Source: Octopus vulgaris
Lineage: Eukaryota
Direction of reading: 5' to 3'
DNA: 64,000 bases
Assembly: GCA_951406725.2 (NCBI GenBank)
Contig: OX597819.1
Coordinates: 61,194,001 to 61,258,000, forward strand
The notes below the pieces were generated by a model. The model was not told the DNA's origin and made no database searches. It worked only from the letters and a program-made list of their open reading frames with translations. Position 1 is the stretch's first letter. Each line of letters starts with the position of its first letter. The position numbers and the translations under genes are program-made. Below, in pieces: positions 1,874-60,340 of the stretch.

Positions 1874-2110
1874 GCAGCAGCAGCAGCAGTCGTCGCCATC
1901 ATTATCATTGTCATCGTCGTCGTAATCAATATCATCATGACCAACACAATCATCACCATCATCACCCTCATAATCGTCGTCGTTGTCGCCGTTGTCGTCA
2001 TCAACATCATTACCAACACAACCATCATAATCATCATTATCATCATCATTATCACCATCATCATCATCAAAATTTCTACCACAGCCATTATTAGTGTTAC
2101 CGTGATAATC
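1780..2110. repeat. Degenerate trinucleotide repeat (ACT/GCA/CAT/GTC)
   Basis: Direct reading; explains the poly-T/I/V/M ORFs. Confidence 0.9.
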
Positions 2111-2209
2111 AACAGAAAAAAGAAACTAACCCATCACCACTTCGATTACCATTCTTGTCATCGATAAATATCAATCAGCCTCGTAACTACCATAAATACC
2201 AACAATCTT

Positions 2210-2423
2210 TTCTATTATAGGTACAAAGCCTGAAATTTGGCGGGAAGGAGGGACTAATCGATTTCATCGACCGCAGTGTTTCACTGGTACTAAATTTATC
2301 GATCCCGAAAGGATAAAAGACAGAATCGACCTCGGCGGAATTTGAACCCAGAACGTACCGACGGGCGGAATACTGCTAAGCATATCGTCCAGCGTGCTAC
2401 CAATTCTGCCAGCCCGCCGCCTT
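2210..2423 (-). mobile_element. tRNA-derived SINE, family B
   Basis: Reverse complement of the ggcggcgagctggcagaa...gttcaaattccgccgaggtcga...ggtcgataaattaagtaccag consensus repeated throughout the window; A/B-box-like head. Confidence 0.85.
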
Positions 2424-2554
2424 CCATAGATACCAGCAATGCCATCGATTTCTTTCTCATGGAGATCCAGTCTTCATAACCATGGTTTTTACCATCACTG
2501 TAGTGCCATAATGCCGTCTTCAGACACTACTAACCTCCATTACCCCAACAAGTA

Positions 2555-2726
2555 CGGGCAGGCGTGGGTGTGCGGTAAAAGGCTTGCTTCCCAGCCACAT
2601 GGTTCCGGGTTCAATCCTACTACGTCTTTTACTATAACCTTGGGCCGACGAGAACCTCGTGGGTGGATTCGGTAGACGGAAACTGAAAGAAACCCGTTGT
2701 GTATATATATATACGACGGACTTCTT

Positions 2727-2786
<60 letters not shown>

Positions 2787-4030
2787 TGTATGTATGTATG
2801 TATGTATGTATGTATGTATGTATGTATGTATGTATGTATGTATGTATGTATGTATGTATATAGGTACATGACGTCACCAACGGTGCAAATAACATGAAAT
2901 ATGTAAACAACGAGAAAAAATGGAAAACAGGATAAGTTAGGACAGAGAAAGGACTCTTCATCAGTTGTCGGCTGTCTATCTATTCATCGGTGTCCCAAAA
3001 GTCACTAGTCACTATACATTTTCTTTTTTTACTATTTCGTTCCAGGTATCATTCGGAGAGACGTGGGGCCATCAGCATTTGACACCATAGACTTTGCAGT
3101 TTACCCTTGCCCATGGCACGCCAGTTGATGTTAGAGAAGCGTTGCAAAACTGCCGCCTAGAAAGAAGATTTTCAGTCCCCTATTGCAGTTCATCGCAAGT
3201 TTGAGAAGGTTTATGGCCATTACACTGCTCCAATGCGTAGCACATTTTATGCTATCCGTAGTAAGTTTCTCGGAAGAGGATCTGTTCTTGACAAACCACG
3301 CAGCGGAAGACCTGGTACTACCACTACTGACGAAAACACCAAACTACTGAAGTAGGCGTTCGCGAAAAGCCAGAGGAAGTCCATCGAGAGGACTACACTG
3401 GAACTTAGAAACTGATAAATCTCTAGCCGTACCGACTTCAGGTTATTCAAAGGTTTCACGCGGAAGATTATGATACTCGTGTGGAAATGTGTGAATCACT
3501 CCTCCACCTTTACCAAAACGATTTTCAATTCTTAGAAAAGTTATGGTTCAGCGATGAGTCTACTTTCATCTCTCTGGTTGGGTAAACCGACACAATTGTC
3601 GAATTTGGAAAAAATCAAAACCAGTAGAAATACTCGAACATGAACGAGACTCTCTGAACCTGGTGGTATGGTGTGCTATGGGCAAGGGAATGATACACTT
3701 ACAAAATCTGCGAAGTCTAAGGTGTCAAATGCTGATGGCCTTACGTCTCTCTGAATGATACCTGAAACGAAATAGAAAAAAGAAAGTGTTTAGTGACTTT
3801 ATGGACACCCTGTATGTATTTGTGTGTCTGTGTTTGTCTTCCCACCATCACTTGACAACCGATGTTGGTGTGTTTACGTCCCCGAAACTTAGCGGTTCGG
3901 CACAAGATACCGATAGAATAAGTACTAGGTTTACAAATAATAAGTCCTGGGGTCGATTTGCCCGACTAAAGGCGGTGCTCCAGCATGACGGTAGTCAAAT
4001 AACTGAAACAAGGTAAAGAATAAAAGAATA
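2555..4030 (+). mobile_element. tRNA-derived SINE, family A, split by insertions in its internal microsatellite
   Basis: 5' half at 2555-2730 and 3' half at 3813-4030 match the intact copy at 56718-57178. Confidence 0.85.
2988..3812 (+). mobile_element. Decayed, internally deleted Tc1/mariner transposon
   Basis: ~110-bp TIRs (ggtgtcccaaaagtcact... / ...agtgactttatggacaccctg|ta). Remnant peptides GSVLDKPRSGRP, WFSDESTF, GWVNRHNCRIW, LVVWCA. Confidence 0.85.
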
Positions 4031-4039
4031 TATATCTAT

Positions 4040-4071
<32 letters not shown>

Positions 4072-4265
4072 TTGTCCCCATACCCCGCTTGACAACTGGT
4101 GGTGATTGTTTACGTCCACTAACTTAGCTATTAGGCAAAAAGAGACCTATAGAATATGTACACAATTGAAAAAAATGTACTGGTGCCAACTCATTCAACT
4201 AAATATTCAAGGCAAGTGCTCCAGCATGGCCGCAGTCTAGTAACTGAAACAAGTAAAAAGATAAA
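4040..4265 (+). mobile_element. SINE family A, 3' half (diverged)
   Basis: gtgctccagcatggccgcagt...actgaaacaagtaaaa tail. Confidence 0.75.
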
Positions 4266-4329
4266 ATATAACCATAATCCTAATCCTCAGTCATCGCCAT
4301 TATTAAGATAATTCTAAATCAAGTCTTTC

Positions 4330-4740
4330 CCCGCCCCAAAAGAAGGTACGTACCATCACGACCACCGTCAGTACCATCTCCACTACAACCAACAAGAATA
4401 CCACGACTACCACCACCACCAATTACAACAATACAGTCAGCAAAACCATTACCGCCGCCACCACCACCACCAAAAACAACAACGTTAAAATCAACAAGAC
4501 CATCACCATCATCATCACCACCATCACTACCACCACCACCATCATCATCACCACCATCACTACCACCACCACCACCATCACCACAACCACCACCATCACC
4601 ACAACCACCACCACCACCACAATCAACAACACCTCCATCACCACTCCCACCTCCATAATCAACAACAAAACTACCTCAGTCACAGCATCATCATTATCAC
4701 CCCCACCACCTCTAACGCCATTACGATCTTCAAAATCACT
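4330..4740. repeat. (ACC/ATC)n low-complexity tract
   Basis: Direct reading. Confidence 0.9.
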
Positions 4741-5181
4741 GCCCGACACCCCCGTCACTGCCCGACACCCCCGTCACCCCGTCTTTCCCGTCACTCATCA
4801 CAACGTCTAACACCTCCAGACACCAGCAGCATCACCGTCGTCATCATCACCACAGCAGCAACTACTTGCATCCTTATTCTTCATCTTTGACACCAATATA
4901 CCAAGATTCTCTTCCTGCCAGATCGTAAATAGACAAAGAACAACAACAACAACAACAACAAAAAAAACTCCAAAAATACCAAACAAAAGCAATACAAAAC
5001 ACACTTTGTAAAAGAGGCAAACAAAAATGAGAAAAGGAGAAATGAAATGATAAAAAAGTTACAAAGCAAAAACAAAATCACAAGAAGAGAAAATGTGAGA
5101 AAAGTTCGTAGTCGACAAAGACGCTGATTAATCTTTAATGTATTCGCGTTTGAGGACATGCACTCAGGGACGCTAGTGTCA

Positions 5182-5218
<37 letters not shown>

Positions 5219-5263
5219 GAGTGTGTGTGTGTATGTATGTATGTATGTGTGTGTGTGTAGCGT

Positions 5264-5304
<41 letters not shown>

Positions 5305-5343
5305 GTATATATTAATGTATATGTACATATATTTATGTGTGAG

Positions 5344-5457
<114 letters not shown>

Positions 5458-5460
5458 ATA

Positions 5461-5755
5461 TACTTTGATACTTTGATAGGTTTTGGCCATTATTGGCCCA
5501 GGCCATGTCTAACTTAATAGCACCACCTGGTGAAGTCTTTCAAGTCAGAATTTGGGCACTATGGCCCACTCAAGTAGAGAGTTATTGTTTACAGAGACAT
5601 ATCCAGGTGTAGGGGGTTTATCCGGGATTTCTTGAAGGAATCTGTCCAAAGACTTCTTGAACCCTATAGGGTCAGTTTCTGTTTTAATGTGTTTTGGTGT
5701 AATGTTAAAGAGAGCGGGGCCAATTGAGGTGAAATAATTGTGCCGTATTGTTGTT
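5461..5755 (-). mobile_element. 3' end of a LINE (CR1/L2-like ORF2 C-terminus + 3' UTR) inside (TA)n
   Basis: [13 protein letters not shown]...[16 protein letters not shown] resembles LINE ORF2 C-termini; tail repeat (tatcaaag)2; (TA)n on both sides. Confidence 0.75.
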
Positions 5756-5777
5756 ATATATACATATATATATATAC

Positions 5778-5963
<186 letters not shown>

Positions 5964-6107
5964 TATATACATATATATATATATATACATATGTATATAT
6001 TTATGCATATGTACATATATTTATGTGTGAGTATATAATATATATATATATGTATACATATATATAGGAGACCAAAAGTGTACTACGCCGATATATATAT
6101 ATATATA

Positions 6108-6267
6108 TAACAAAACAAAAATGGAACAAGAACGTAACAGGCAACAACAAAACACGAGGACAGTTAGACGATACAAAAAAAAAGACAGGAAAAAACAAGG
6201 ACAGGTCATTCGGAACTTTCTTTCGTCATTCGAGCACCAGATCGTCGTTGCAGTTTCGACCGGTTAT

Positions 6268-6270
<3 letters not shown>
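6108..6270. repeat. Short interspersed repeat in microsatellite, related to 20990-21135
   Basis: caaggacaggtcattcgga and cagatcgtcgttgcagtttcg segments recur, partly inverted, at 20990-21135. Confidence 0.55.
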
Positions 6271-6330
<60 letters not shown>

Positions 6331-7499
6331 CTCGTATATATGTATGTATATATGTATATATGTATATATATCTATTTATATATATGTATATGTATGCATA
6401 TATGTTTGTGTGTATACGTGTATGCATATATATGTCTGTGTGTGTATACGTGTATATATATATATATATATGTATATGTGTACATGTGTGTGCGTGCGTG
6501 CATGCATGCATGTGTGCATGCGTGCGTGCGTGCATACGTACATACATACATACATACATACATACATACATACATACATACATACATACATACATACATA
6601 CATACATACATACATAGAGTGGCGCAGCAACGAAATTTGCTTAGGTGGTGCAAACTCTGGTCCAAAATTTTTTACAAACAAGGCCTATTTTATTTTGTTG
6701 AATCTTAATATCAAAACAAACACAGATGTAATACTTTTTTATTAATCTACAGGGAAAACTAATGCTTCAAATCACTCCATAAGTTCTGTGCTCACTCGTT
6801 TTGGCGACGAAGTCTTCATTGCACAAGCGTTTACGTACATGCATTATTGCATTGTGTGTCAAGCGATATTGCAGCATAACTTTGAGCCCAGCTCAATGTT
6901 TTGGCAATAAAATTATCCAGAATAGCCTTGGTTAGTATCTCCAAAGTGTAGCCAGGAGAAAACTTTCATGGACCTCCTAGTTTTCGGAAACATAGCAATA
7001 TGTCAGAGCAATCACATATAATTCCAATAAACATGGAATCTTCAAAATTTACAAAGATCCCTATGACATGTGTTAGCTTTGATTTCAAAGACTCAACTAG
7101 TAACTCCTTTTATCTTTTACTAAGAACATTCCTCGATCCTTCAACAATGGAACTGCGAACTACTATTATCTTTCCCTAAAGACTTCCTTAATTCTCTGAT
7201 CATAGACGTGCTAACCACTATTATCTTTCACTAAGTATGTCCTTTAATTCTTCGATAAACTACTAATATCCTTTATTAAAGATATTCTTTAATTCTTTCT
7301 CTCCAAAGACGGAATAGTTGGCTTACATGGAAATCTTTGCTCAATGACATATGACCCACATGCTCAGCTATTCTAGAAAGAACTGTAAGAAATTTTACGT
7401 ATTATTTTTTAATCAAATATTAACTATAGCTACTCTGTAATTATGTTTGAATTATAAATTACATATTTTACTTGTTCACCTGACTTTCTACTTGGCCTT

Positions 7500-8220
7500 C
7501 CTAAAATTCAAGTTCATGAAGAGTGTTATTTATGTGTTTTGCCCTCTTTGAACCATATACAGATAATTGTATAATGGTGTGGGTGGAAATAGCTGTGGGA
7601 ATGATCTGAACATTGTGAGTCAAGTCTGTATTGGTGGTAAAGACCAGGACTGGATGGGTAATGAGTTGTTGCATGAGGAAGTCTTTTAGTAGTATTGAAA
7701 ACATCATTCATATCTCTCCTGTTCAGTTGTATAATTCCAGGATGGATATAACCCTCTGGCCAGCTGAAACTAGGAATATTAAAACTCCCTGCTAAAAGTA
7801 CACTGGCCTGTGGGCTAACCGTATTTAAGGTTTGGCTTATAAGCGACAAAGTACCTTTGAAGTGATCTCCGAGGTTAGCTGCATCAGGAAGACAGCAGAT
7901 AATGCCTGTGATCAAATTCAGGTCAATTACATGCATTATTAGTGTATCGTATGCTGTGTTGGAAAGGAAGAAGAGAACATTTGTTGCCAAGTCTTCTTGG
8001 ATAAAGATCGCCATTTCTCCTTCTTTCCATATTCTACTGTCAGTTCTGAGCAGTACATAACCTGTTCTTTCGCATGCAATATGTCTGTGGTTAGGTGTGT
8101 TTCACTTAGTACGATACATATTGTCTTTTCTCACTGTACGAGGTCTTTCTCGCTGTGCAAGGTCTCTAAGATATGATACTTTTGTTCGATTTGAAAGATC
8201 TTGTACATTCGGCATTATTA
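7500..8220 (-). pseudogene. Decayed AP-endonuclease domain of a CR1/L2-like LINE
   Basis: SETHL, GYVLLRTD, LLAGSFNIPSFSW (cf. GDFN.P.I.W) and QLITHP motifs with frameshifts. Confidence 0.7.
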
Positions 8221-8469
8221 TAGAGTTGAGTGCGTGAGTTAGAGACAGCAATGGTATGGTTGTGCTTTAGGGTAATAGCAGTGGTTGGATTTTTTCTGTG
8301 TGGGAGGAAGAGGTCTAATTGTTATAGTTCATTCTCTTTTTTTTTCTAAGCCTGGAAAAGGTAAGTAAGGGATGCAATATTGAATTTGGCACTCACACAA
8401 AATTTTAAGGAGTGCAAGTGCAACCTCTGTTTCCGAGCCCTTGTATACATATATACATCCACACAATTT

Positions 8470-8470
8470 C

Positions 8471-8504
<34 letters not shown>

Positions 8505-8630
8505 AAATATTTATACATACATATATATACATATATATATATATACATATTTATACATATATATACATACATATTTATACATATATATACATACATATAT
8601 ATATATATACATATATATATATACATATAC

Positions 8631-8664
<34 letters not shown>

Positions 8665-8718
8665 ACATATACATACATACATATATATACATACATATAC
8701 ATACATATATATACATAC

Positions 8719-8763
<45 letters not shown>

Positions 8764-9412
8764 CATACATATATATATATACACACATATATATATATAC
8801 ATATATATATACATACATGTACATACATATATATACATACATATACATACATACATGTACATACATACATATACATACATACATGTACATACATACATAT
8901 ATGTAAATATATACATACATATACATACATACATGTACATACATATATATATGTAAATATGTACATACATATATATATATATATAAACATATATGTATAT
9001 ATATGCATATATATATGCATATATATATATATATACATACATATATACATATATATACATACATACATACATATATACATATATATACATACATACATAC
9101 ATATATACATATATATACATACATACATATATACATATATATATACATATATATACACATATATATACATATATATATACATATATATACATACATACAT
9201 ATATACATATATATACATACATACATATATACATATATATACATACATACATATATACATATATATATACATATATATACATACATATATATATACATAT
9301 ATATACATACATACATATATACATATATATACATACATACATATATACATATATATACATACATACATATGTATACATATATATATATATATATACACAC
9401 ACACATATATAT
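8470..9412. repeat. ~940-bp compound (TA)n/(TACA)n microsatellite
   Basis: Direct reading. Confidence 0.97.
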
Positions 9413-21211: not shown

Positions 21212-21420
21212 GTTAATCCAAACATGAAAACATAAAGAGAAAACACAACAACGCGAGGACGGGGAACAGGTATAGTGTTATTGGATGCTCAGGAAAGGAA
21301 AAAAAGGGGGAAGATTTAACGTTTCAAGCGGAGCTCTTCGTCAGAAACATAGGAAAAAGAAAGATCCAAGGAAGGGAAGACAGAGTAAAAAAATCGCCAA
21401 CGATACACACGTCGTCTCAC
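21210..21420 (-). mobile_element. ~200-bp Penelope-pLTR-like repeat carrying a minimal HHR
   Basis: Same family at 57555-57778 and 63048-63260; flanked by microsatellites. Confidence 0.8.
21315..21347 (-). ncRNA. Minimal type I hammerhead ribozyme motif
   Basis: Minus strand: TTT CTGACGA A GAGC-TCC-GCTT GAAA CG TT AAA. Confidence 0.7.
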
Positions 21421-21609: not shown

Positions 21610-23643
21610 GTGAGTGTTTTTGGTAGACGGAAACTGAAAGAAGCCTGTCGTACACACAATCAACATATGCACAAACAAAAACACAAACCAAACTTCAGCA
21701 AAAAAGAATGGGCTGAGTTGAACAAATTAAAACTAGATAAAACAATAACAATCAAAGAGGCCGATAAAGGGAGTGCTGTTGTCTTAATGGATACGACATT
21801 TTACATAACTTTGGTACTTTCTATGCTGGAAGACACAACATACTATGAAAAGGCACAAAACTACAGTCAACAAAAAATAATGAGGGAACTAAAATCCATA
21901 TTAAACCCATACAAAGCAGGGCTCACCGACAAAGAATATGATTATATGACCAATTTCACAAGTAAAACTAGCCAATTCTACGGTATACCTAAGATCCACA
22001 AAAGTGAAAAAATAAGCAACGCATGCAAGATAGCTACAGACAAAATAATTAAAGTCCCTAATCCTAATGACCTCAAATTGAGACCCATAATAGCAGGTCC
22101 CGCATGCGAAACCCACCGCCTCAGTAACTTTTTAGACACCCTGTTAAAACCACTCCTCAAACATGTCAAAAGCTATATAAGGGACGACTTAGATATGCTC
22201 AATCACCTACCGAATACTATAAACAAAAACACCATACTGGTATCCTTCGATGTAGTCAACCTCTACTCCAATATCCCCCACAACCTAGGACTAGAGGCAA
22301 TCCAATTCTGGCTAGAGAATCACGCCAACGAACTACCACACCGCATCAAAAAAGAATTTGTGATAGAAGGGGTTAAATTCATCCTGGAAAATAACTTCTT
22401 CGCCTTCAATGACAACTTCTACCGACAAAAATCGGGGACTGCGATGGGTACACGAATGGCCCCCTCCTTTGCCAACCTAGTCATAGGATACCTAGAGATC
22501 AGTCTGTATCGTAAGGTTCTAGAAAGATATGGCAGCCCTTTCTCCATCTACATAGAAAACAACTGGAAGAGATATCTAGATGACTGTTTCATCCTTTGGC
22601 ATAAAAATATAGAAAAACTCATAGAATTCCAGAAAATTTTAAACGGACTGGACGTAAACATCCAATTCACGATGGAATATAGCCAACAACAACTCCCCTT
22701 CCTCGATATCCTCATTAAGAAAGCTAATAATATAATAGAAACAGACATATACTATAAGCCTACAGACTCTAAGCAATATCTTCCATTCAATTCATGCCAC
22801 CCCAGACACACCAGGATGAATATCCCCTTCAATCTAGCAAAAAGGATATGCACTATAGTCTCTAACGCAAACACCAGAGACACACGACTACAAGAACTAA
22901 AAGATACCCTAATCACCAGGAACTATCCACCTTCACTTATTGACAAGTGCATTCAACGTGCCCTTCAACTTAACATCAAGGAACTGAGACATCCCAAATC
23001 AAAGAAAAACTTACAACCAAAAGCCTTACCATACATCTCCACACACAACCCTCTCAATAACGAAGCCTTCGACACCATCCTCCACAACATACCCCTCCTA
23101 AAAAAATACCACAGAATGAACACAATCCTCCAAACACACACGATCATAAAAAGCAAAAGACAGCCTAGATCCATGAAAAGTCTCCTTACACAAGCCCGAA
23201 TTCACTCTTCAACACAGAAGCCGACAGTAAAAAAATGTGGAAGACCCAATTGCGGGATATGCGACTATCTAATCGAGGGTTCTGAGTTCTCCTTCAAACA
23301 GGGACAACGGTTTACAGTGAAAAGCAACTTCACATGTGCTTCGGAGAACCTAATATACTCACTAACCTGCTCCGGGTGTCAAGAGCAGTACATAGGCCAA
23401 ACAAAAAATGGTTTGCGTAAACGAATGGCCCTGCACAGATCCCAGATAAAAATTCCCCAAAACAGAAAAATAGCTTTTAGCCAACACATAGATACTTGCG
23501 CCAACAAAAAAACACCAAACTTCAGAATTTTCCCCCTCTACCAATGTAGGGACGATACAACCTCGAGACAAAGAATAAGTAAAGAAAATCTCTTTATTAC
23601 AAAATACAAGCCACTTCTTAACGGGTCTACGACAAACAATTAA
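21610..23643 (+). CDS. Penelope-like element (Neptune type) reverse transcriptase + GIY-YIG endonuclease, 5' truncated
   Basis: 677-aa open frame with IKEADKGSAVV, LRPII, SFDVVNLYSNIP, GTAMGTRMAP, RYLDD, LPFLD, YYKPT, Cys linker CGRPNCGIC and NLIYSLTC...YIGQT. The first ~14 codons are SINE-derived, so there is no native start. Confidence 0.95.
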   Translation: MSVFGRRKLKEACRTHNQHMHKQKHKPNFSKKEWAELNKLKLDKTITIKEADKGSAVVLMDTTFYITLVLSMLEDTTYYEKAQNYSQQKIMRELKSILNPYKAGLTDKEYDYMTNFTSKTSQFYGIPKIHKSEKISNACKIATDKIIKVPNPNDLKLRPIIAGPACETHRLSNFLDTLLKPLLKHVKSYIRDDLDMLNHLPNTINKNTILVSFDVVNLYSNIPHNLGLEAIQFWLENHANELPHRIKKEFVIEGVKFILENNFFAFNDNFYRQKSGTAMGTRMAPSFANLVIGYLEISLYRKVLERYGSPFSIYIENNWKRYLDDCFILWHKNIEKLIEFQKILNGLDVNIQFTMEYSQQQLPFLDILIKKANNIIETDIYYKPTDSKQYLPFNSCHPRHTRMNIPFNLAKRICTIVSNANTRDTRLQELKDTLITRNYPPSLIDKCIQRALQLNIKELRHPKSKKNLQPKALPYISTHNPLNNEAFDTILHNIPLLKKYHRMNTILQTHTIIKSKRQPRSMKSLLTQARIHSSTQKPTVKKCGRPNCGICDYLIEGSEFSFKQGQRFTVKSNFTCASENLIYSLTCSGCQEQYIGQTKNGLRKRMALHRSQIKIPQNRKIAFSQHIDTCANKKTPNFRIFPLYQCRDDTTSRQRISKENLFITKYKPLLNGSTTNN

Positions 23644-24422
23644 TATACCTCAACTTTAGAATAAAAGAAAAAAATATATATACACACACAAATACTACAC
23701 TCCATAGAATCCATTACTAATCAGCCCCTTCATAGCTATATTTACACCCATTCATATTCTCCCTTCTCTGTTTTTTTCTTCTTCTTCTTCTTCATCATCA
23801 TCGTTATCATCATCATCGGCGTCATCATCATCGCCACCATCATCACCACCATCTTCTCCTTCTCCTCCTTCTTCTTCTTCTTCTTCTTCTTCATCATCAT
23901 CGTTATCATCATCATCGTCGTCATAATCATCACCACCATCACCATCATCTTCTCCTTCTCCTTCTCCTTCTTCTTCTTCTTCTCCACCCCCTACCCCTTA
24001 AGTTTGTCACTAATGTTTTTTAGTATAACACCTACGCTAATTCTATAAACAAGCCTGTCAATATAAATATTCTCCTGAATTGAACTGAGACTGCCAGCCG
24101 CCACTGACCATTCAAAATACGACCATCAGGACACTCCCAGATTCTCCCACCCCCTTTCCTCACCAGCCTTCCCTCTACTACCCTACCAAGAACTCACAAC
24201 TACCTCGAACACACAAGTGCAAACAAGGGAGTCAGAGAAAGGCAGAATGCCACTTAAATCTGAACACTACTATAGAAATATTCTTTTAAAAAAACTTTTC
24301 TTCTAATTTTTCTAAATTTAATTATTTAATCGTTACAGTTGAAAAGGTCTCAAAATGACCGAAACCGGTACTGAAATGTTCACTATAAAATTATTTTAGC
24401 ATTTTCTATTTTTTACTTGTTT

Positions 24423-24427
<5 letters not shown>
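21651..24427 (+). mobile_element. Penelope-like retroelement copy (ORF, 3' UTR with triplet repeats, terminal HHR)
   Basis: Bounded by SINE 5' half and (TA)n; ends in T-rich tract after the HHR. Confidence 0.9.
24333..24376 (+). ncRNA. Type I hammerhead ribozyme, U3-A8 variant
   Basis: CAG TTGAAAA GGTC-tcaaaat-GACC GAAA CCGG TA CTG; palindromic stem III ACCGGT. Confidence 0.8.
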
Positions 24428-35524: not shown

Positions 35525-35941
35525 CTTATTTCTTTATTGCCCACAAGTGGCAAACATAGAGGGAACAAACAAGGACAGACAAAGGGATTAAGTCGATTAC
35601 ATCGACCTCAGTGCGTAACTGGTACTTAATTTATCGACTCCGAAAGGATGAAAGGCAAAGTCGACCTCGGCGGAATTTGAACTCAGAACGTGGCGGCAGA
35701 TGAAATACCTATTACTTTACTACCCACAAGGGGCTAAACACAGAGAGGACAAACAAGGACAGAAAAAGTGATTAAGTCGATTATATCGACCCCAGTGCGT
35801 AACTGGTACTTAATTTATCAACCTCGAAAGGATGAAAAGCAAAGTCGACCTCGGCGGAATTTGAACTCAGAACGTGGCGGCAGACGAAATACCGCTGAGC
35901 ATTTCGCCCGGCGTGCTAACGGTTCTGCCAGCTCGCCGCCT
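35525..35941 (-). mobile_element. Head-to-tail SINE B dimer; a partial + strand copy lies at 35305-35460
   Basis: Two copies joined at gaaatacc|tatt; ccttaattct flanks both ends. Confidence 0.88.
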
Positions 35942-36227: not shown

Positions 36228-36786
36228 CACTTTTACTCTTTTACATGTTTCAGTCATTTGATTGCGGCCATGCTGGAGCACCACCTTTAGTCGAGCAAAT
36301 CGACCCCCAGGACTTATTCTTTGTAAGCCTAGTACTTTTTCTATGGGTCTCTTTTGCCGAACCGCTTATTTACGGGGACGTAAACACACCAGCATCGGTT
36401 GTCAAGCGATGCTGGGGGCCAAACACAGACAAATAAACATAAACACACACACACACACACATACATACACATATATATATAAATATAGGGAGAATTTACA
36501 AAAAAAAGCAAAAGATTAAGACAGGTGCTGTAGACAACAAACAGATGTATTAGTTTAACGCTTGGGAAGTGAAAAAGTCTTTAACATTTCGAGCCTACGC
36601 TCTTCCACAGAAAGGAACACATATACATATATATACGACGGGTTTCTTTCAGTTTCCGTCTACCAAATCCACTCACAAGGCTTTAGTCGGCGAGGCTATA
36701 GTAGAAGGCACTTGCCCAGGATGCCATGCAGTGGAACTGAACCCGGAACCACGTGGTTCGTAAACAAGCTAATTACCACTCAGCCA
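36228..36786 (-). mobile_element. SINE family A with a ~135-bp HHR-like insert in its microsatellite
   Basis: Consensus halves flank 36485-36620. Confidence 0.85.
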
Positions 36787-44328: not shown

Positions 44329-44572
44329 ATTGCCGTAATTTACTACAGAAAAACGTATATATAGATTTTTAGCCATGACATTCCGTCTACATACACAATA
44401 TGTTCGTAAACAGAAAAAGAAGGAATAACTAAATATGCTGCACATTTTCAATCTATTTAGAGTTTCGTTTAACCGCAGTTATATAACAAACGCAAATATG
44501 TGAAATAAAGTAAATGGCTTGTCATATACACTCGTTCGTTTTTTTCCGTTTATTTTTATCTTCAATTGTGTA

Positions 44573-44644
44573 GGTCTCATGATGTAATGGTTAGCATTCT
44601 GGACTCTGAATCCATCGATACGAGTTCAAGTCTCGGTGAGACCT
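44573..44644 (+). tRNA. tRNA-Gln(CTG), possibly a pseudogene
   Basis: GGTCTCA TG ATGT AATGGTTA GCAT T CTGGA CTCTGAA TCCAT CGAT ACGAG TTCAAGT CTCGG TGAGACC T. Perfect acceptor stem; one mismatch each in the anticodon and T stems. Confidence 0.88.
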
Positions 44645-44657
44645 TATATACTTTACT

Positions 44658-49353: not shown

Positions 49354-49427
<74 letters not shown>

Positions 49428-49428
49428 A

Positions 49429-49462
<34 letters not shown>

Positions 49463-49465
<3 letters not shown>

Positions 49466-49808
49466 CTCTTTTACTTGTTTCAGTCATTTGACTGTGGCCA
49501 TGCTGGATCACCGCCTTTAGTCGAGTAAATCGACCCCCAAGACTTATTCTTTGTAAGCCTAGTACTTATTCTATCGGTCTCTTTGCCGAACCGCTAAGTT
49601 ACGGGGACGTAAACACACCAGCATCGGTTGTCAAGCGATGTTGGGGCGGAGGGACAAAGACAGACACACAAACATACACACACATATATATATACATATA
49701 TACGGCGGGCTTCTTTCAGTTTCCGTCTAAAAAATCTTCTCACAAGGCTTTAGTCGGCCCGAGGCTATAGTAGAAGACACTTGCACAAAGTACCACGCAG
49801 CCACTCCT

Positions 49809-49812
<4 letters not shown>
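49463..49812 (-). mobile_element. SINE family A
   Basis: Consensus match. Confidence 0.9.
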
Positions 49813-49850
<38 letters not shown>

Positions 49851-50034
49851 TTAGGTGGTTATTCGCAATGCAGAACCGAAAGGTAGACGTTTAGTCGTCA
49901 CTAGAGTGGCTGAGGGTGCTAGTCAGCTCCAGCATCGCTAGAAATAAAGGTCAAAACAACGCTAAGCTACGTGAGAGCAGTTTTCTAACAACTGAGAAGG
50001 GAAGGGAAGCAAGTTCCCTACGGCAAGCGAGATG

Positions 50035-50084
50035 GAGTCATATCATCGATGATTTCAGATTTAGTTAATCTTCATCAGTGACCC
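50035..50084 (-). ncRNA. Canonical type I hammerhead ribozyme
   Basis: Minus strand: GGGTCA CTGATGA AGATT-aacta-AATCT GAAA TCATCGATGA TA TGACTC. Confidence 0.9.
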
Positions 50085-50307
50085 ATTATTCCGTCGCCGA
50101 GGGTTAAAAACTTAACCCTTGTCAGTCTTATAGAGAATACCACGGGAAAGATTGACTGATTCCGAATATATATATGTGTATGTGTGTGTGTGTGTGTGTA
50201 ATTAATCCCCCCACCCCCCCAAAAACGAAGAAAAAAACCAAGTAAAAACAACACGAGAAAGTGGTACATGCAAAGTATTAAAAGTCGCTCAGGGAAGGAA
50301 AGAAAGG

Positions 50308-50346
50308 TTGTTTTACGTTTCGAGCAAATCTCTTCTTCAGAAACAA
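50308..50346 (-). ncRNA. Minimal type I hammerhead ribozyme
   Basis: Minus strand: TTGTTT CTGAAGA A GAG-atttg-CTC GAAA CG TA AAACAA, in a diverged relative of the 21210 repeat (~50200-50415). Confidence 0.8.
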
Positions 50347-50414
50347 GAGACAGAGGAAAGTCCAAGAAAAAAGGAAGATGGAGTTAAGAAATCGCCAACA
50401 ATCCACGTGTAGAT

Positions 50415-50459
<45 letters not shown>

Positions 50460-50625
50460 ATATATATATATATGTATATATATATGTATGTATGTATATA
50501 TGTATATATATATATGTATGTATATATGTATATATATATATGTATATATATATGTATGTATATATATATGTATATATATATGTATGTATGTATCTATGTA
50601 TATATATATATATATGTCATGTATC

Positions 50626-50663
<38 letters not shown>

Positions 50664-50707
50664 CATGTATATATGTATGTATGTATCTATGTATATATAT
50701 ATATATA

Positions 50708-51584
50708 TATCAGTAACAATAAAGGGTGAAATTAATTAATTTGGAATAATTATCAATTACACCAAGTAGATTTCGGCATGTAAAAGCCTCATTCGTGGAA
50801 AATTTAAGTAATACTAAGCAATTAAGGGTTTAGCAACGAATTGCCTCACCAACACACCGAATTTAGAAATAGCAGTCAAAGAGATATAGCTATTCCTTCT
50901 ACTAAAAGGGAGATCTCAAGGAATAGCTATATCTCTTTGACTGCTATTTCTAAATTCGGTGTGTTGGTGAGGCAATTCGTTGCTAAACCCTTAATTGCTT
51001 AGTATTACTTAATTTTCCACGAATGAGGCTTTTACATGCCGAAATCTACTTGGTGTAATTGATAATTATTCCAAATTAATTAATTTCACCCTTTATTGTT
51101 ACTGATAACCATATTTTATCCCAGTAAATGACCACAGCATCTTGTCTTGGCTACACGCGGGTGGAAGGGGGCTGGTGACACAAACTTTCATTCACACTTT
51201 GAATTTCGTGGTACTGGTCATGCTTTGGCTCGCTCTGACACTGAGTTGAGATGATGCCTTCTAGTATCTCAAAATTTAATATACAATTATTCAAAATTGT
51301 AGTATCCTACGCCGATGAGAAAAGAAGTTTGGGTAAGGTAGAATTTTCTAATTCTTATGCTTTCCTAAAACTTGATTTCGAAACGTACGTCCGTAGGTAA
51401 CTTAAAATTGTATGATAGATTGCCGTCATTTCATTCTTTCTTACCTGTCTGTGTTTGCCTTTCAAGTGCTGTGTTTTTACTGAGATCTCCCTTTTAGTAG
51501 AAGGAATAGCTATATCTCTTTGACTGCTATTTCTAAATTCGGTGTGTTGGTGAGGCAATTCGTTGCTAAACCCTTAATTGCTTA

Positions 51585-51587
<3 letters not shown>
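50708..51587 (+). mobile_element. Retrozyme/pLTR-like element: inverted arm + ~1.15 tandem copies of a 583-nt unit
   Basis: 50708-50898 is the reverse complement of 50918-51107 (one 1-nt indel seen); 50918-51005 recurs from 51501; (TA)n on both sides. Confidence 0.88.
51306..51397 (+). ncRNA. Type I hammerhead ribozyme, U4C variant with 61-nt stem II
   Basis: CCTACG CCGATGA GAAA...TTTC GAAA CGTACG TC CGTAGG. Confidence 0.85.
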
Positions 51588-51619
<32 letters not shown>

Positions 51620-51620
<1 letters not shown>

Positions 51621-51835
51621 TGTTTCCGTGTGTCCCCTTGTATTTGTGTTGATTGTCCCCATCACTGCATGACAACCGGTACTGATTTGTTAGCGTCCCT
51701 GCAATTTAGTGATTTGGCCAAAGAATCGATAAGTACCAGACTTTACTGGCGGCAATTTGTTCCACTAAGCCTCTCAAAGTAGTGCTCCAGTATGGCCGCA
51801 GTGCAATGACTGAAACAAGTAAAAGATAAAAGAAA
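51620..51835 (+). mobile_element. SINE family A, 3' half (diverged)
   Basis: Consensus match. Confidence 0.75.
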
Positions 51836-51914
51836 GCACGTGTTGAAAGCACATAGGTCCATAGTAAACTTATGCTGTATACGTCATTCGTAAGAGTTAT
51901 TTTGATGTATGGTT

Positions 51915-52270
51915 AAGTGGCACTCCGTCGGTTACAACGAGGAGGGTTCCAGTTAATCCGAACAACCGGAACAAGCAGTCGTGAAATTAACGTGCAAGTG
52001 GTTGAGCACTGTACAGACGCTCGTACCCTTAATGTAGTTCTCGGGGTGATTCAGCTTGATACAGAATATGACAAGGCTGGACGTTTTGAATTACAGGTAC
52101 AACTAGTTTTAGTCAGTTGGTTAGACGGGAGCAATGTGAAATAAAGTGTCTTGCTCAAGTATACAGGCGCCGCCTGTGAAATAAAGTGTCTTGCTCAAGT
52201 ATTCTGGCGCCGCCAGAAATCGAACTCACAATCATGTGATCGTCAAGCGAATACCCAAACCGCTCAGCCG
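51915..52270 (-). mobile_element. tRNA-derived SINE, family D
   Basis: Minus-strand head ggctgagcggtttgg...gagttcgatttc and cttgagcaagacacttt core (duplicated 36 bp); related fragments at ~57225-57380 and 63590-63660. Confidence 0.7.
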
Positions 52271-57554: not shown

Positions 57555-57778
57555 CACACATATATACATCCATACATACACACACACTCATATATATATA
57601 CATACATATATATACAAAATGTGATCTCGTGTGTACCGTTGGCGATTTTTTTCCTCTGTCTTCCCTTCTCTGGATCTTTCCTTCTCCTATGTTTCCGACG
57701 AAGAGCTCCGCCCGAAACGTTAAACCCTCCTTCTTTCCTGAGCGTCCAATAATACTATATTTGTTCCACGTCCTCATA
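57555..57778 (+). mobile_element. HHR-bearing ~200-bp repeat (motif 57691-57725, mutated)
   Basis: GTTT CCGACGA A GAGC-TCC-GCCC GAAA CG TT AAAC. Confidence 0.75.
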
Positions 57779-57846: not shown

Positions 57847-60340
57847 AGTCATTGTCCAATTTTATTTCAAGATTTCTTGCCAATAGAAAAAAATCCGGTT
57901 TCTAATCTAGATTCAAGGATCCTTCGTGTATGTATGTATGTATGTATGTATGTATGTATGTATATGCAGATTTGTATGTTTTATGTATGTATTTTCCTGC
58001 ATATAGTTGCATATCCATTCATGCCCATCTATATTTAAATGATAAACTTCTGAAAAGTTTTACAGATTTTTACAGTTCCAGTGATGGATTGGATCTGTAG
58101 TCTTCGAATTAGCTTTCTACTTTCAGGTTTTGAGAAGCCTAATTTCTCAAAATTGGTAATTAGACAGTGTATTACATATTCCAGGGCTCCAATAATTACA
58201 GGTATAAACTTGAACTTGTAATCTGGATAGAGTAACTGCAGATTTCTCAATAGTTCGGCATAGGTGTTCCCTTTTTCACTTATCTTCAGCCTTATGTTAG
58301 CATCTGCTGGTCAGCTAATTTCCACAATTGTGCACAGTTTCTCTTCACTATCCCAAATCATTATATCAAGTCTGTTGTGCTTGCATTTTATTGAGATCTT
58401 CACTGGTAGTATTCCTTTTTATCATGAGTGGCTATGGTTTCTATTATATTGTGGGTTCTTATTTCTTTGTCCTCGGGATTATCCTCCCGACGAGTTTCAT
58501 CATAGAGTGTCCTAGCTACAACATCATGTCTCATCGATAAATAATACCGTGATGACATTTTCGGACAACTGCTTATGATGTGGGTGATATCTACGGTGTT
58601 AACTCCACAAAGTCTGCATCGGGTGTCTCATTTTACTGCTTTTCCTGCATCTCTATCACTTTTGTGCATCAGGTACTTGGTTGATATTTTCTGTTGCTGG
58701 ATTGCAAACGTATATCCTTCAAAGTGGGAGGTAGTAATCCGGCTATTGGTCCATGATAAACTGCTTTGATGATCGATGTTACTATCATCTCGGAACTTTC
58801 TACTGCATAGTATAGGCTCATTCTTTCATCTAATGATACGTTACGGTAGAGTCGTGCAACTTCTTTGGAAATATATTTAAGGTTATCAGACAAAGAGTTG
58901 CTCAAGGAGCTGCCTTCCAAGTCTTATGATGTTATCAGCTTCGTGTATGCAAACTTGGTCAAGGGATGCACTTCGACACTCGGTGGTTAAAAGATGTTGT
59001 TGAAGGAATATGATGCGACATTCAAAGGCATTTTGGATCGATGTTAAACCTCTGCCGCCTTGTTTTCGTTTTAGGTAGAGGCGGTCTACACCACTGTTTA
59101 TGTAGAAATTATGTGTGCTTGTAAGTATTTTTCGGGTTTTCACATCAAGGGCTCGGTTCTCATCAAGTGTCCAATCAAGCAAGCCAAATGTTGGTATAAG
59201 TACTGGCACTGCAAACACATTGTGCGTCACTGTTCTATTGAATGCAGAGAGTTCTGAGGTCCAAATTTTCTTTATTCGGCTATAATATTTTTAGTGACGC
59301 GTGTTTTGTTACAGGTGCCATTGTAAGATATATTTTCATCCACCCCTAGATACCTGTAATATTCCTCGTCAGATACAGGGGAAACAGTCAAATCATTGAT
59401 GGAGATGTTACTAGTCTCGTTTATAGTTTTCTCCCCTTTGCACACCATATAACATTTATTCTGACCAAACTCCAACCCTATATCCTTTGAAAATGTTGTA
59501 ATTAGGTCAAGGCTCTTTTTTATCTCATGTATGTTCTTTGCACAACGTTTTAAGTCATCCACAAAGAAACAGTGTGTAATTTTGGTATTGTTGTTCCCAT
59601 GTAAACCAGTGAAATATCCTTCAGACTTCCTTAACATGAATGACAAGGGGTTTACAGAAAGTATAAACAACATCACAAAGAGGTTGTCCCCTTGGAATAT
59701 GCCTTTGTGATACTTTATTCTATCAGCGATAATGCAGTCACTCTTTGTGCTTAATTTCAAGACGGTGGCCCACGATGAAGTCAGGTCAGTTATGTCTTTG
59801 ACTATTCTTACTGGAACTTCAGCAAGTCGAAGGGTTTCTAGCATCCATGAGTGGGGAACAGAGTCAAAGGCTTTCTTGCAGTCTGGCTACATTGAAACTA
59901 GATTCTTCTTATGCTCTAGCACCTCTGACATCACAGTTTTGTTGCTTAGTAATTGCTCGGCACACACCCAAATTCCCTTCTTCCCAGCTGCTTGTTCTTC
60001 TGTGATAATGTTATTGGTTTCACAATGGTCCTGGAGCAAGAGGTTTAAACATGTATGTATCTTATACATTAATTTCTGGCATACAATTGACAAGTAGTTT
60101 TGTTTGGTTTTTTCTTACTATGTGGGTGGTTCTGCATTTGGGGATCAATTTTGTCGCTGCTAGAGCTAACCAGTGTGGTATGCTATTATTCCCAATGAAA
60201 GCTTGCTGGTACAGATTGATAACATATGGTCGGTAGAATATTAGCTTCTTGAACCAATATCCAACAATCAAGTCTCTTCCAAGTGCTTTTCCATCCTGGA
60301 CTTTCTGGATCACTGTTGCAGGAGTCTCACCATCAATATT
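57847..60340 (-). mobile_element. 5'-truncated, frameshifted R4/Dong-like non-LTR retrotransposon (RT + CCHC + restriction-like endonuclease)
   Basis: KKAFDSVPH, GIFQGD, THCFFVDDLK, YRYLG, RLYLKRKQGGRGL, CRLCG...ITHIISSCP, RHDVVA, KHNRLDI, IPVIIGAL; (TATG)n at both ends. Confidence 0.9.

Follow-up and report, generated by a model that had tools for sequence, protein, structure and literature searches.

The window analysed here, a stretch of 64,000 nucleotides from Octopus vulgaris (assembly GCA_951406725.2, contig OX597819.1, positions 61,194,001 to 61,258,000), contains three hammerhead ribozymes (HHRs) within 1.36 kb (50035-51397). An earlier note on this DNA had placed them at 50035 (-), 50308 (-) and 51306 (+), and a type I hammerhead descriptor that permitted U4C and U3-A8 found all three there, these coordinates being the low ends of helix I. 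The same note had assigned each HHR to an insert of its own, and this also held: dinucleotide tracts separate the inserts, here called A, B and C, and (TA)n tracts flank them on the outside (Table 1). Homology among the three inserts was limited to chance words. On its left side the island adjoins a high-copy interspersed repeat, which we take to be SINE-like. The window as a whole is rich in microsatellites (106 tandem-repeat rows), and 52% of it was masked even with a small repeat library.

Table 1. Positions of the island, of the Penelope-like element (PLE) copy and of the HHRs in the 64,000-nt window
Feature	Position	Strand	Remark
Family D PLE copy, 5'-truncated	21661..24426	+	reverse transcriptase (RT), Cx4Cx2C linker, GIY-YIG
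Hammerhead D	24336..24373	+	U3-A8 core variant, 3' end of family D
High-copy interspersed repeat adjoining the island	49464..49810	.	>20 further pieces homologous to it in the window
(TA)18 tract, 3' end of insert A	49811..49846	.	from the tandem-repeat listing
Insert A	49846..50166	-	about 321 nt; the repeat unit is 342-343 nt, circularly permuted
Hammerhead A	50035..50084	-	type I; core CUGAUGA at 50078-50072; GAAA
(AT)n/(GT)n spacer, A to B	50167..50200	.	
Insert B	50201..50410	-	5'-truncated 3' end (pLTR), by its relatives, of a decayed GIY-YIG PLE
Hammerhead B	50308..50346	-	minimal form; core CUGAAGA; GAAA-CG-UA
TA/TATG microsatellite, left target flank of insert C	50418..50710	.	
Insert C, inverted 5'-truncated piece	50708..50918	-	about 210 nt; unit positions 564-583 and 1-190
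Insert C, forward piece	50918..51588	+	one 583-nt unit + 88 nt (1.15 units)
Hammerhead C	51306..51397	+	type I; core CCGAUGA (U4C) at 51312; GAAA-cgtacg-UC
(TA)16, right target flank of insert C	51586..51617	.	
Intact HHRs in the window	21344, 24339, 50078, 50340, 51312, 63176	-, +, -, -, +, -	descriptor
Decayed B-type HHR copies in the window	36580-36613; 57675-57737		homology

The three HHRs are genuine and lie above chance. The descriptor search that had been proposed for them was run on the window and on a sample of 400 kb, made up of forty 10-kb stretches taken at round positions of the 2.80-Gb assembly (227 contigs) and not chosen by content. The window held six intact HHRs, against a mean of 0.30 and a maximum of 2 in 100 local dinucleotide shuffles, none of which reached six or more; the sample held 21, against 1.25 in 20 shuffles. 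Hit density thus exceeded that of the shuffled controls in both. About ten motifs had been claimed for the window. Many are indeed present, but the count was slightly high, since six intact and two decayed motifs make eight. With Rfam no hammerhead reached the gathering score in the window and none reached E≤10 in 49400-52000; a tRNA alone scored at the gathering level, and below it stood microsatellite and inverted-repeat look-alikes of miRNAs.

All three motifs have the type I core (CUGANGA ... GAAA ... UH or a natural variant), canonical in A and B and with U4C, a natural hammerhead variant (PMC3088659), in C. They also have the type I helix order, with helices II and III closed and helix I open, and in all three helix III is a perfect palindrome throughout. 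Hammerhead A has a helix I of 6 bp and a helix II of 5 bp, and its helix III, a 12-nt palindrome, forms 4 bp in the monomer; cleavage is predicted after A50041. In hammerhead B, helix I has 6 bp, helix II 3 bp and helix III 0 bp in the monomer, an extra unpaired A stands between positions 9 and 10.1, and cleavage is predicted after A50314. Hammerhead C combines a 6-bp helix I with a 61-nt helix II (4+ bp) and a palindromic helix III of 2 bp in the monomer, and its predicted cleavage follows C51391. Minimum-energy folding of the single motifs was weak evidence (z of -1.3, -0.6 and -2.3 for A, B and C). The inserts belong to three unrelated multi-copy families, and in each the distance from the type I hammerhead to the 3' end downstream is 110-280 nt.

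Family A is old. Its best copies were 77-84% alike (best 40 scored of 423 first-look candidates), and the best copy of the window insert was 82% alike. It shows marks of PLE integration, namely partial tandems, inversions and 3' ends that lie in (TA)n in 7 of 22 cases; for this count, as for the corresponding one in family B, matches stopping over 35 nt before the end of the query were dropped. None of the 20 top loci examined among the 423 candidates carried two same-strand HHRs. Helix III of family A occurs as two different perfect palindromes (7/18 and 2/18 matches), which points to past selection on the fold.

Family B is old as well, its best copies being 83-89% alike (best 40 scored of 3789 candidates). 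A tight pattern for its minimal motif gave 4315 exact genome-wide matches, 2157 forward and 2158 reverse, and 0 for the control. No tandem of the unit was present among 20 loci. Longer copies run upstream through a CA-rich tract, and three long loci were picked from the 20 for a match or a likely remnant. Two of these three (L155 and L156) have same-strand GIY-YIG remnants about 1.3-1.4 kb upstream of B, L156 has an RT motif in addition, and the third (L154) is colinear with L155, with 74% identity over 1.9 kb. The HHR-bearing 3' end of the family is thus joined to a same-strand RT/GIY-YIG frame, as in a PLE pseudo-LTR (pLTR). These upstream remnants make insert B the 5'-truncated remainder of a 3' end that belonged to a decayed PLE with an endonuclease. 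Among 19 B 3' ends, 8 lie in (TA)n and 13 in a dinucleotide tract of any kind.

Family C, in contrast to A, is young. Full-unit copies were 94-99% alike (158 matching pieces; 40 scored of 2133 candidates), the window insert was 99% identical to another copy, and a 27-nt stretch of the hammerhead had 254 exact matches genome-wide and 0 for the control. The unit measures 583-588 nt, and some loci have arrays of up to three full units. It is non-coding, with 36.5% GC and a longest ATG frame of 49 aa, and its circle is predicted to fold at -154 kcal/mol, against -118.5 ± 5.5 kcal/mol for 30 shuffles. Family C thus has the properties of a non-LTR retrozyme: a short HHR unit, multimers, no coding, a GC content under 45-50% and a predicted self-paired circle. 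Seventeen independent insertions were compared, namely the top 20 loci minus three that overlapped, in a ranking that favours full-length copies. At least two same-strand HHRs were present in 8 of the 17, and an inverted piece in 11. In 9 of these 11 the two outward 3' ends differed: one fell within unit positions 68-94, the second within 180-197 (by eye). All 27 free 3' ends, from 16 loci, entered (TA)n within 25 nt, compared with 8.4% of 4000 random positions. Partial tandems, inversions, unequal ends and TA flanks are marks of PLE integration, and by these features of its copies family C is classed as a young non-coding non-LTR retrozyme integrated by PLE machinery. An active retrozyme locus has been defined by two consecutive units with complete HHRs (Li et al. 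2026). The window copy, with 1.15 units and one motif, falls outside that definition, and with a single hammerhead it would be unable to release unit-length RNA alone.

An older subfamily, C2, has a unit of 599 nt that is 77% alike to C and was met twice in the random sample. C2 shares the two 3' ends of C, and 15 of its 19 free 3' ends lie in (TA)n. Position 4 is U in 21 of 22 C2 motif matches, whereas nearly all of the young C copies displayed have C4. In a helix II alignment of 13 rows, of which only two were young and one of these two was out of register by 5 nt, both sides had changed between C and C2 in 2 of 23 consensus pairs. Two side observations concern both subfamilies. Their two preferred 3' ends, at unit positions 68-94 and 179-197 (window 50918-51500), lie about 100 nt apart, usually one on each side of an inverted insertion, and both are TA-like words; and a GGTAAG word in helix II (window 51319-51379), which resembles a 5' splice site, is kept while its neighbours differ.

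Contigs of four sequencing runs, three of them presumably RNA and the fourth of uncertain type, covered all 30 bins of the C unit. A bridge from the end to the start of the unit was present in the contigs of all four; tandem DNA explains it. A rise of the summed contig depth near the predicted C cleavage site in the X1 run was set aside, since contigs show neither ends nor levels and subfamilies add depth. At L003 an RT fragment beside a C copy was rejected as a partner of C because a TA tract separates the two. This AT-rich fragment (2352-2883, +), with a weak RVT_1 match, has a presumably Naiad-like look.

The window also holds a copy of a fourth family, D, which encodes proteins. All 150 scored matches were 99-100% identical and many had the whole 784-aa frame; a 39-mer of its hammerhead had 1756 exact genome-wide matches, with 0 for the control, and the hammerhead was present at 30 of 30 D loci. 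In the translation RVT_1 scored above its cut-off and GIY-YIG, at 21.5 bits, just below its cut-off of 22.6; the Cx4Cx2C linker was read by eye. An RT, a CX2-5CxxC linker, a C-terminal GIY-YIG and a pLTR hammerhead are features of Neptune/Nematis-type endonuclease-bearing (EN+) PLEs. All 26 free 3' ends of D lie in (TA)n, against the same background of 8.4%. By its domain features family D appears to be a young autonomous Neptune/Nematis-type PLE, abundant in the genome and a candidate mobiliser. No 3' homology of D to A, B or C was found, D sharing only chance words with A and C, and for this reason its pairing with A or C as a mobiliser is something that we only infer. When family D and the flanks of 54 loci of families A, C and C2 were compared, no autonomous element matched the 3' end of A or C; a single weak PLE match of 34 aa lay beside these loci. 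A B-like copy at 21247-21408 was considered as a terminal repeat of the window D copy and rejected, as it lies opposite to the D frame and another repeat intervenes.

Full units of D, at L132 (2985-7412) and L133, form a tandem unit of about 4.4 kb. Whole copies have an upstream stop-to-stop frame of 446 aa and the 784-aa frame with RT and GIY-YIG, which overlap by 64 nt in the -1 frame, and a T6A run lies in the overlap. Judged from the frames, this arrangement could be a programmed frameshift; an overview figure of PLEs includes an optional frameshifted ORF1 (PMC8557442).

The earlier note had extrapolated to a very large genome-wide load, and the 400-kb sample agrees with it, giving an order of 10^5 motifs. 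The 21 sampled HHRs correspond to 14 insertions (by eye), one of them an array of seven motifs, and one or two may be chance hits. Density was about 35 insertions (range 19-59) and about 50 motifs (range 32-80) per Mb, which extrapolates to about 54,000-164,000 insertions and 91,000-225,000 motifs in the genome, where all ranges are Poisson limits and too narrow for clumped motifs. For comparison, minimal motifs number about 2,000-9,000 per genome in Schistosoma, coelacanth and Xenopus (PMC4209133); the load of about 10^5 found here lies above these figures, although it covers all families under our own descriptor and the two descriptors differ, so that the numbers are not strictly comparable. 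A coral has over 6000 hammerheads, a mussel about 5000 and the axolotl up to about 120,000 (PMC7229834). Among cephalopods, 235 Rfam hammerheads are given for the giant squid (PMC6962438). Beyond this one Rfam count no cephalopod hammerhead census was found in our literature searches, although the supplements of PMC8557442 and PMC4209133 may list cephalopod families. An octopus repeat annotation (PMC13282606) and a further paper (PMC8967140) report Penelope elements, and hammerhead or ribozyme has 0 occurrences in their main text. The island itself is ordinary, yet it is a pointer to a load of hammerheads in this genome that is very large and has gone uncounted.

The island very probably arose by three independent retrotransposition events, which differ in age and piled up in one TA-rich tract. 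The three HHRs would be adjacent because three unrelated mobile repeats landed successively in the same TA microsatellite. The claim of the earlier note that Penelope-type mobilisation carries the modules into microsatellites gains support from the TA flanks of every C and D 3' end counted and from the link of B to a GIY-YIG remnant. In the published model (PMC4209133, PMC7229834) HHRs belong to the life cycle of the elements, and the island motifs would do the same. Two like HHRs in a tandem transcript would pair through the palindromic helix III and cut out unit-length RNA, which would be circularised and then copied by a PLE reverse transcriptase, with reverse transcription primed at an endonuclease nick in (TA)n. 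Each insertion would split the TA tract and leave two new targets, so different families would gather at the same spots. Shared TA targeting would therefore make the island a by-product and not a functional unit, and its single HHR copies are most likely inert or weakly active passengers. The weaker TA flanks of the old families A and B count against this explanation. When TA proximity was measured from the motif itself in the random sample, 5 of 21 motifs lay within 100 nt of a tract against 18.6% expected, and the enrichment was not clear.

The earlier note suggested that the modules could cut host pre-mRNA on either strand. Put more fully, this reading places the island within a transcribed intron of the host and has such cutting frequent enough to be of consequence at a load near 10^5; it found no support here, and we regard it as distinctly improbable. 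No host exon was found in the window, where 0 of 143 scanned frames reached the Pfam cut-off (from 246 non-repeat frames of at least 40 aa; four weak matches), although short exons and long introns could be missed in such a scan, and the 10 kb on either side held only retroelement-like frames (by eye). Each island HHR is single, and the palindromes are of the dimer type: each pairs with its own kind only, with no in-register cross-pairing among the three, and C lies on the other strand. In the monomer, B lacks a helix III and that of C is 2 bp long; C also carries U4C, a change that lowers activity in vitro (PMC3088659) and in a viroid still permits infection (PMC3088659). The active folds lie above the minimum-energy folds by 5.4 (A), 3.5 (B) and 5.8 (C) kcal/mol. 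Single minimal HHRs gave no detectable cleavage and dimers little (PMC4209133), and eight of nine Xenopus dimers were without product while one cleaved (bioRxiv 10.64898/2026.07.22.740005). On the other side stand the density of motifs estimated above, the 4-bp helix III that A forms as a monomer, the C insertions elsewhere with at least two same-strand motifs and the seven-motif array in the random sample. Retrozyme monomers from coral and mussel do cleave in vitro (PMC7229834). In Xenopus, introns are depleted of retrozymes (bioRxiv 10.64898/2026.07.22.740005), a pattern in keeping with some host cost. Of the three motifs, A is predicted to be the likeliest to cut alone. A broader proposal, which we consider unlikely, joins several points: that the genome carries about 10^5 HHRs of many PLE and retrozyme families, among the highest densities described, that tandem C-type arrays and monomer-competent A-type motifs in sense orientation within long introns cut nascent host RNA frequently enough for a strand bias to result, and that the circular RNA of the young family C is abundant. 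A count of intronic strand bias would be a cheap test of the cost of HHRs to the host.

The three inserts could also have met by chance in a repeat-dense genome without any target preference. At 35 insertions per Mb, random placement would give a triplet within 1.35 kb 0.002 times per 64 kb and about 106 times per genome, so that triplets as such are to be expected somewhere. The flanks of A and B are at the background density of other motifs, with four foreign HHR insertions in 113 kb (P=0.58), and a pooled flank test was not significant (P=0.07 to 0.30). Against chance stand the C 3' ends, all of which lie in TA, and the composition of the island, which is 13% TA compared with a mean of 3.5% and falls in the top 4% of sampled stretches. 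Close mixed pairs were also in excess: among the 14 insertions in the 400-kb sample two mixed-family pairs lay less than 500 bp apart, against 0.22 expected (P=0.019), and the flanks of C and D held seven foreign insertions in 64 kb, compared with 14 in 400 kb (P=0.019). We thus hold a chance meeting to be very improbable. Since a triplet is rare per window under random placement, the preferred pile-up in a shared TA target needs clustering, for which the counts are small. Similar mixed clusters occur at two unselected places, L103 and L120, and the mixed pair at L103 is accompanied by a D-related fragment and a TA tract. That the three HHRs form a selected, host-co-opted multi-ribozyme module deserves hardly any credence, for although all three cores have stayed intact, even in the old inserts A and B, many of whose relatives show broken ones, the HHRs lie on two strands, mixed dimers are impossible, the ages are far apart (99% identity of C to a copy against 82% for the best A copy) and the mixed clusters recur at the two unselected places.

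Hammerheads in PLEs, retrozymes, a bias towards TA and loads near 10^5 have all been published. A, B and C are new families, but their kinds (non-LTR retrozymes and 3' ends of PLEs) are known, and so is the TA preference that probably stacked them. The non-LTR retrozymes described in animals (Cervera and de la Pena 2020, PMC7229834; Li, Clavereau and Pollet 2026, bioRxiv 10.64898/2026.07.22.740005) are short, non-coding, low-GC tandem units with which C shares one type I hammerhead per unit, a self-paired circle fold and a range from monomers to multimers, and autonomous PLEs co-exist with them, as D does here. The C and C2 unit of 583-599 nt is above the 150-450 bp of PMC7229834 and within the 51-972 bp of bioRxiv 10.64898/2026.07.22.740005. 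C differs from these retrozymes in its 61-nt helix II and in the U4C of its core, which is close to fixation in the young subfamily, and inversion, tail and TA target are seen here directly for retrozyme family C. With the minimal pLTR hammerheads of PLEs (Cervera and de la Pena 2014, PMC4209133), D shares the U3-A8 core described for the Cercyon elements of Schistosoma. EN+ Neptune/Nematis PLEs, as described in the text of Craig et al. (2021, PMC8557442), have partial tandems, an inverted 5'-truncated copy and a one-sided tail, with (TA)n targets that hide target-site duplications, all of which are shared here, and family D shares their Zn-finger-like linker before GIY-YIG. The C 3' ends lie about 100 nt apart, in contrast to the 30-40-bp tail described for those elements, and family D differs from them by a second upstream frame that overlaps the RT frame. 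Retrozyme C and the autonomous PLE D are both young and have a TA target in common, and many D frames are intact. Together they make a convenient natural system for examining the proposal that retrozymes are mobilised by PLEs via circular RNA.

Further HHR families were seen at L091 (2270-4550), L131 (4800-5590), L015 (950-1180), L087 (near 3344) and L138 (near 2396). They include a 359-nt array with seven motifs and several families with a helix II of 45-60 nt, often beside C or D. Elsewhere in the window, tandem units of 203 nt (570-1180), 184 nt (35527-35893) and 40 nt (52135-52214) had no hammerhead match, a broken LINE-type reverse transcriptase occupies 58000-60100 (-) with RVT_1 at 59272-59883, and an intact-looking tRNA-Gln(CTG) gene lies among repeats at 44572-44645 (+).
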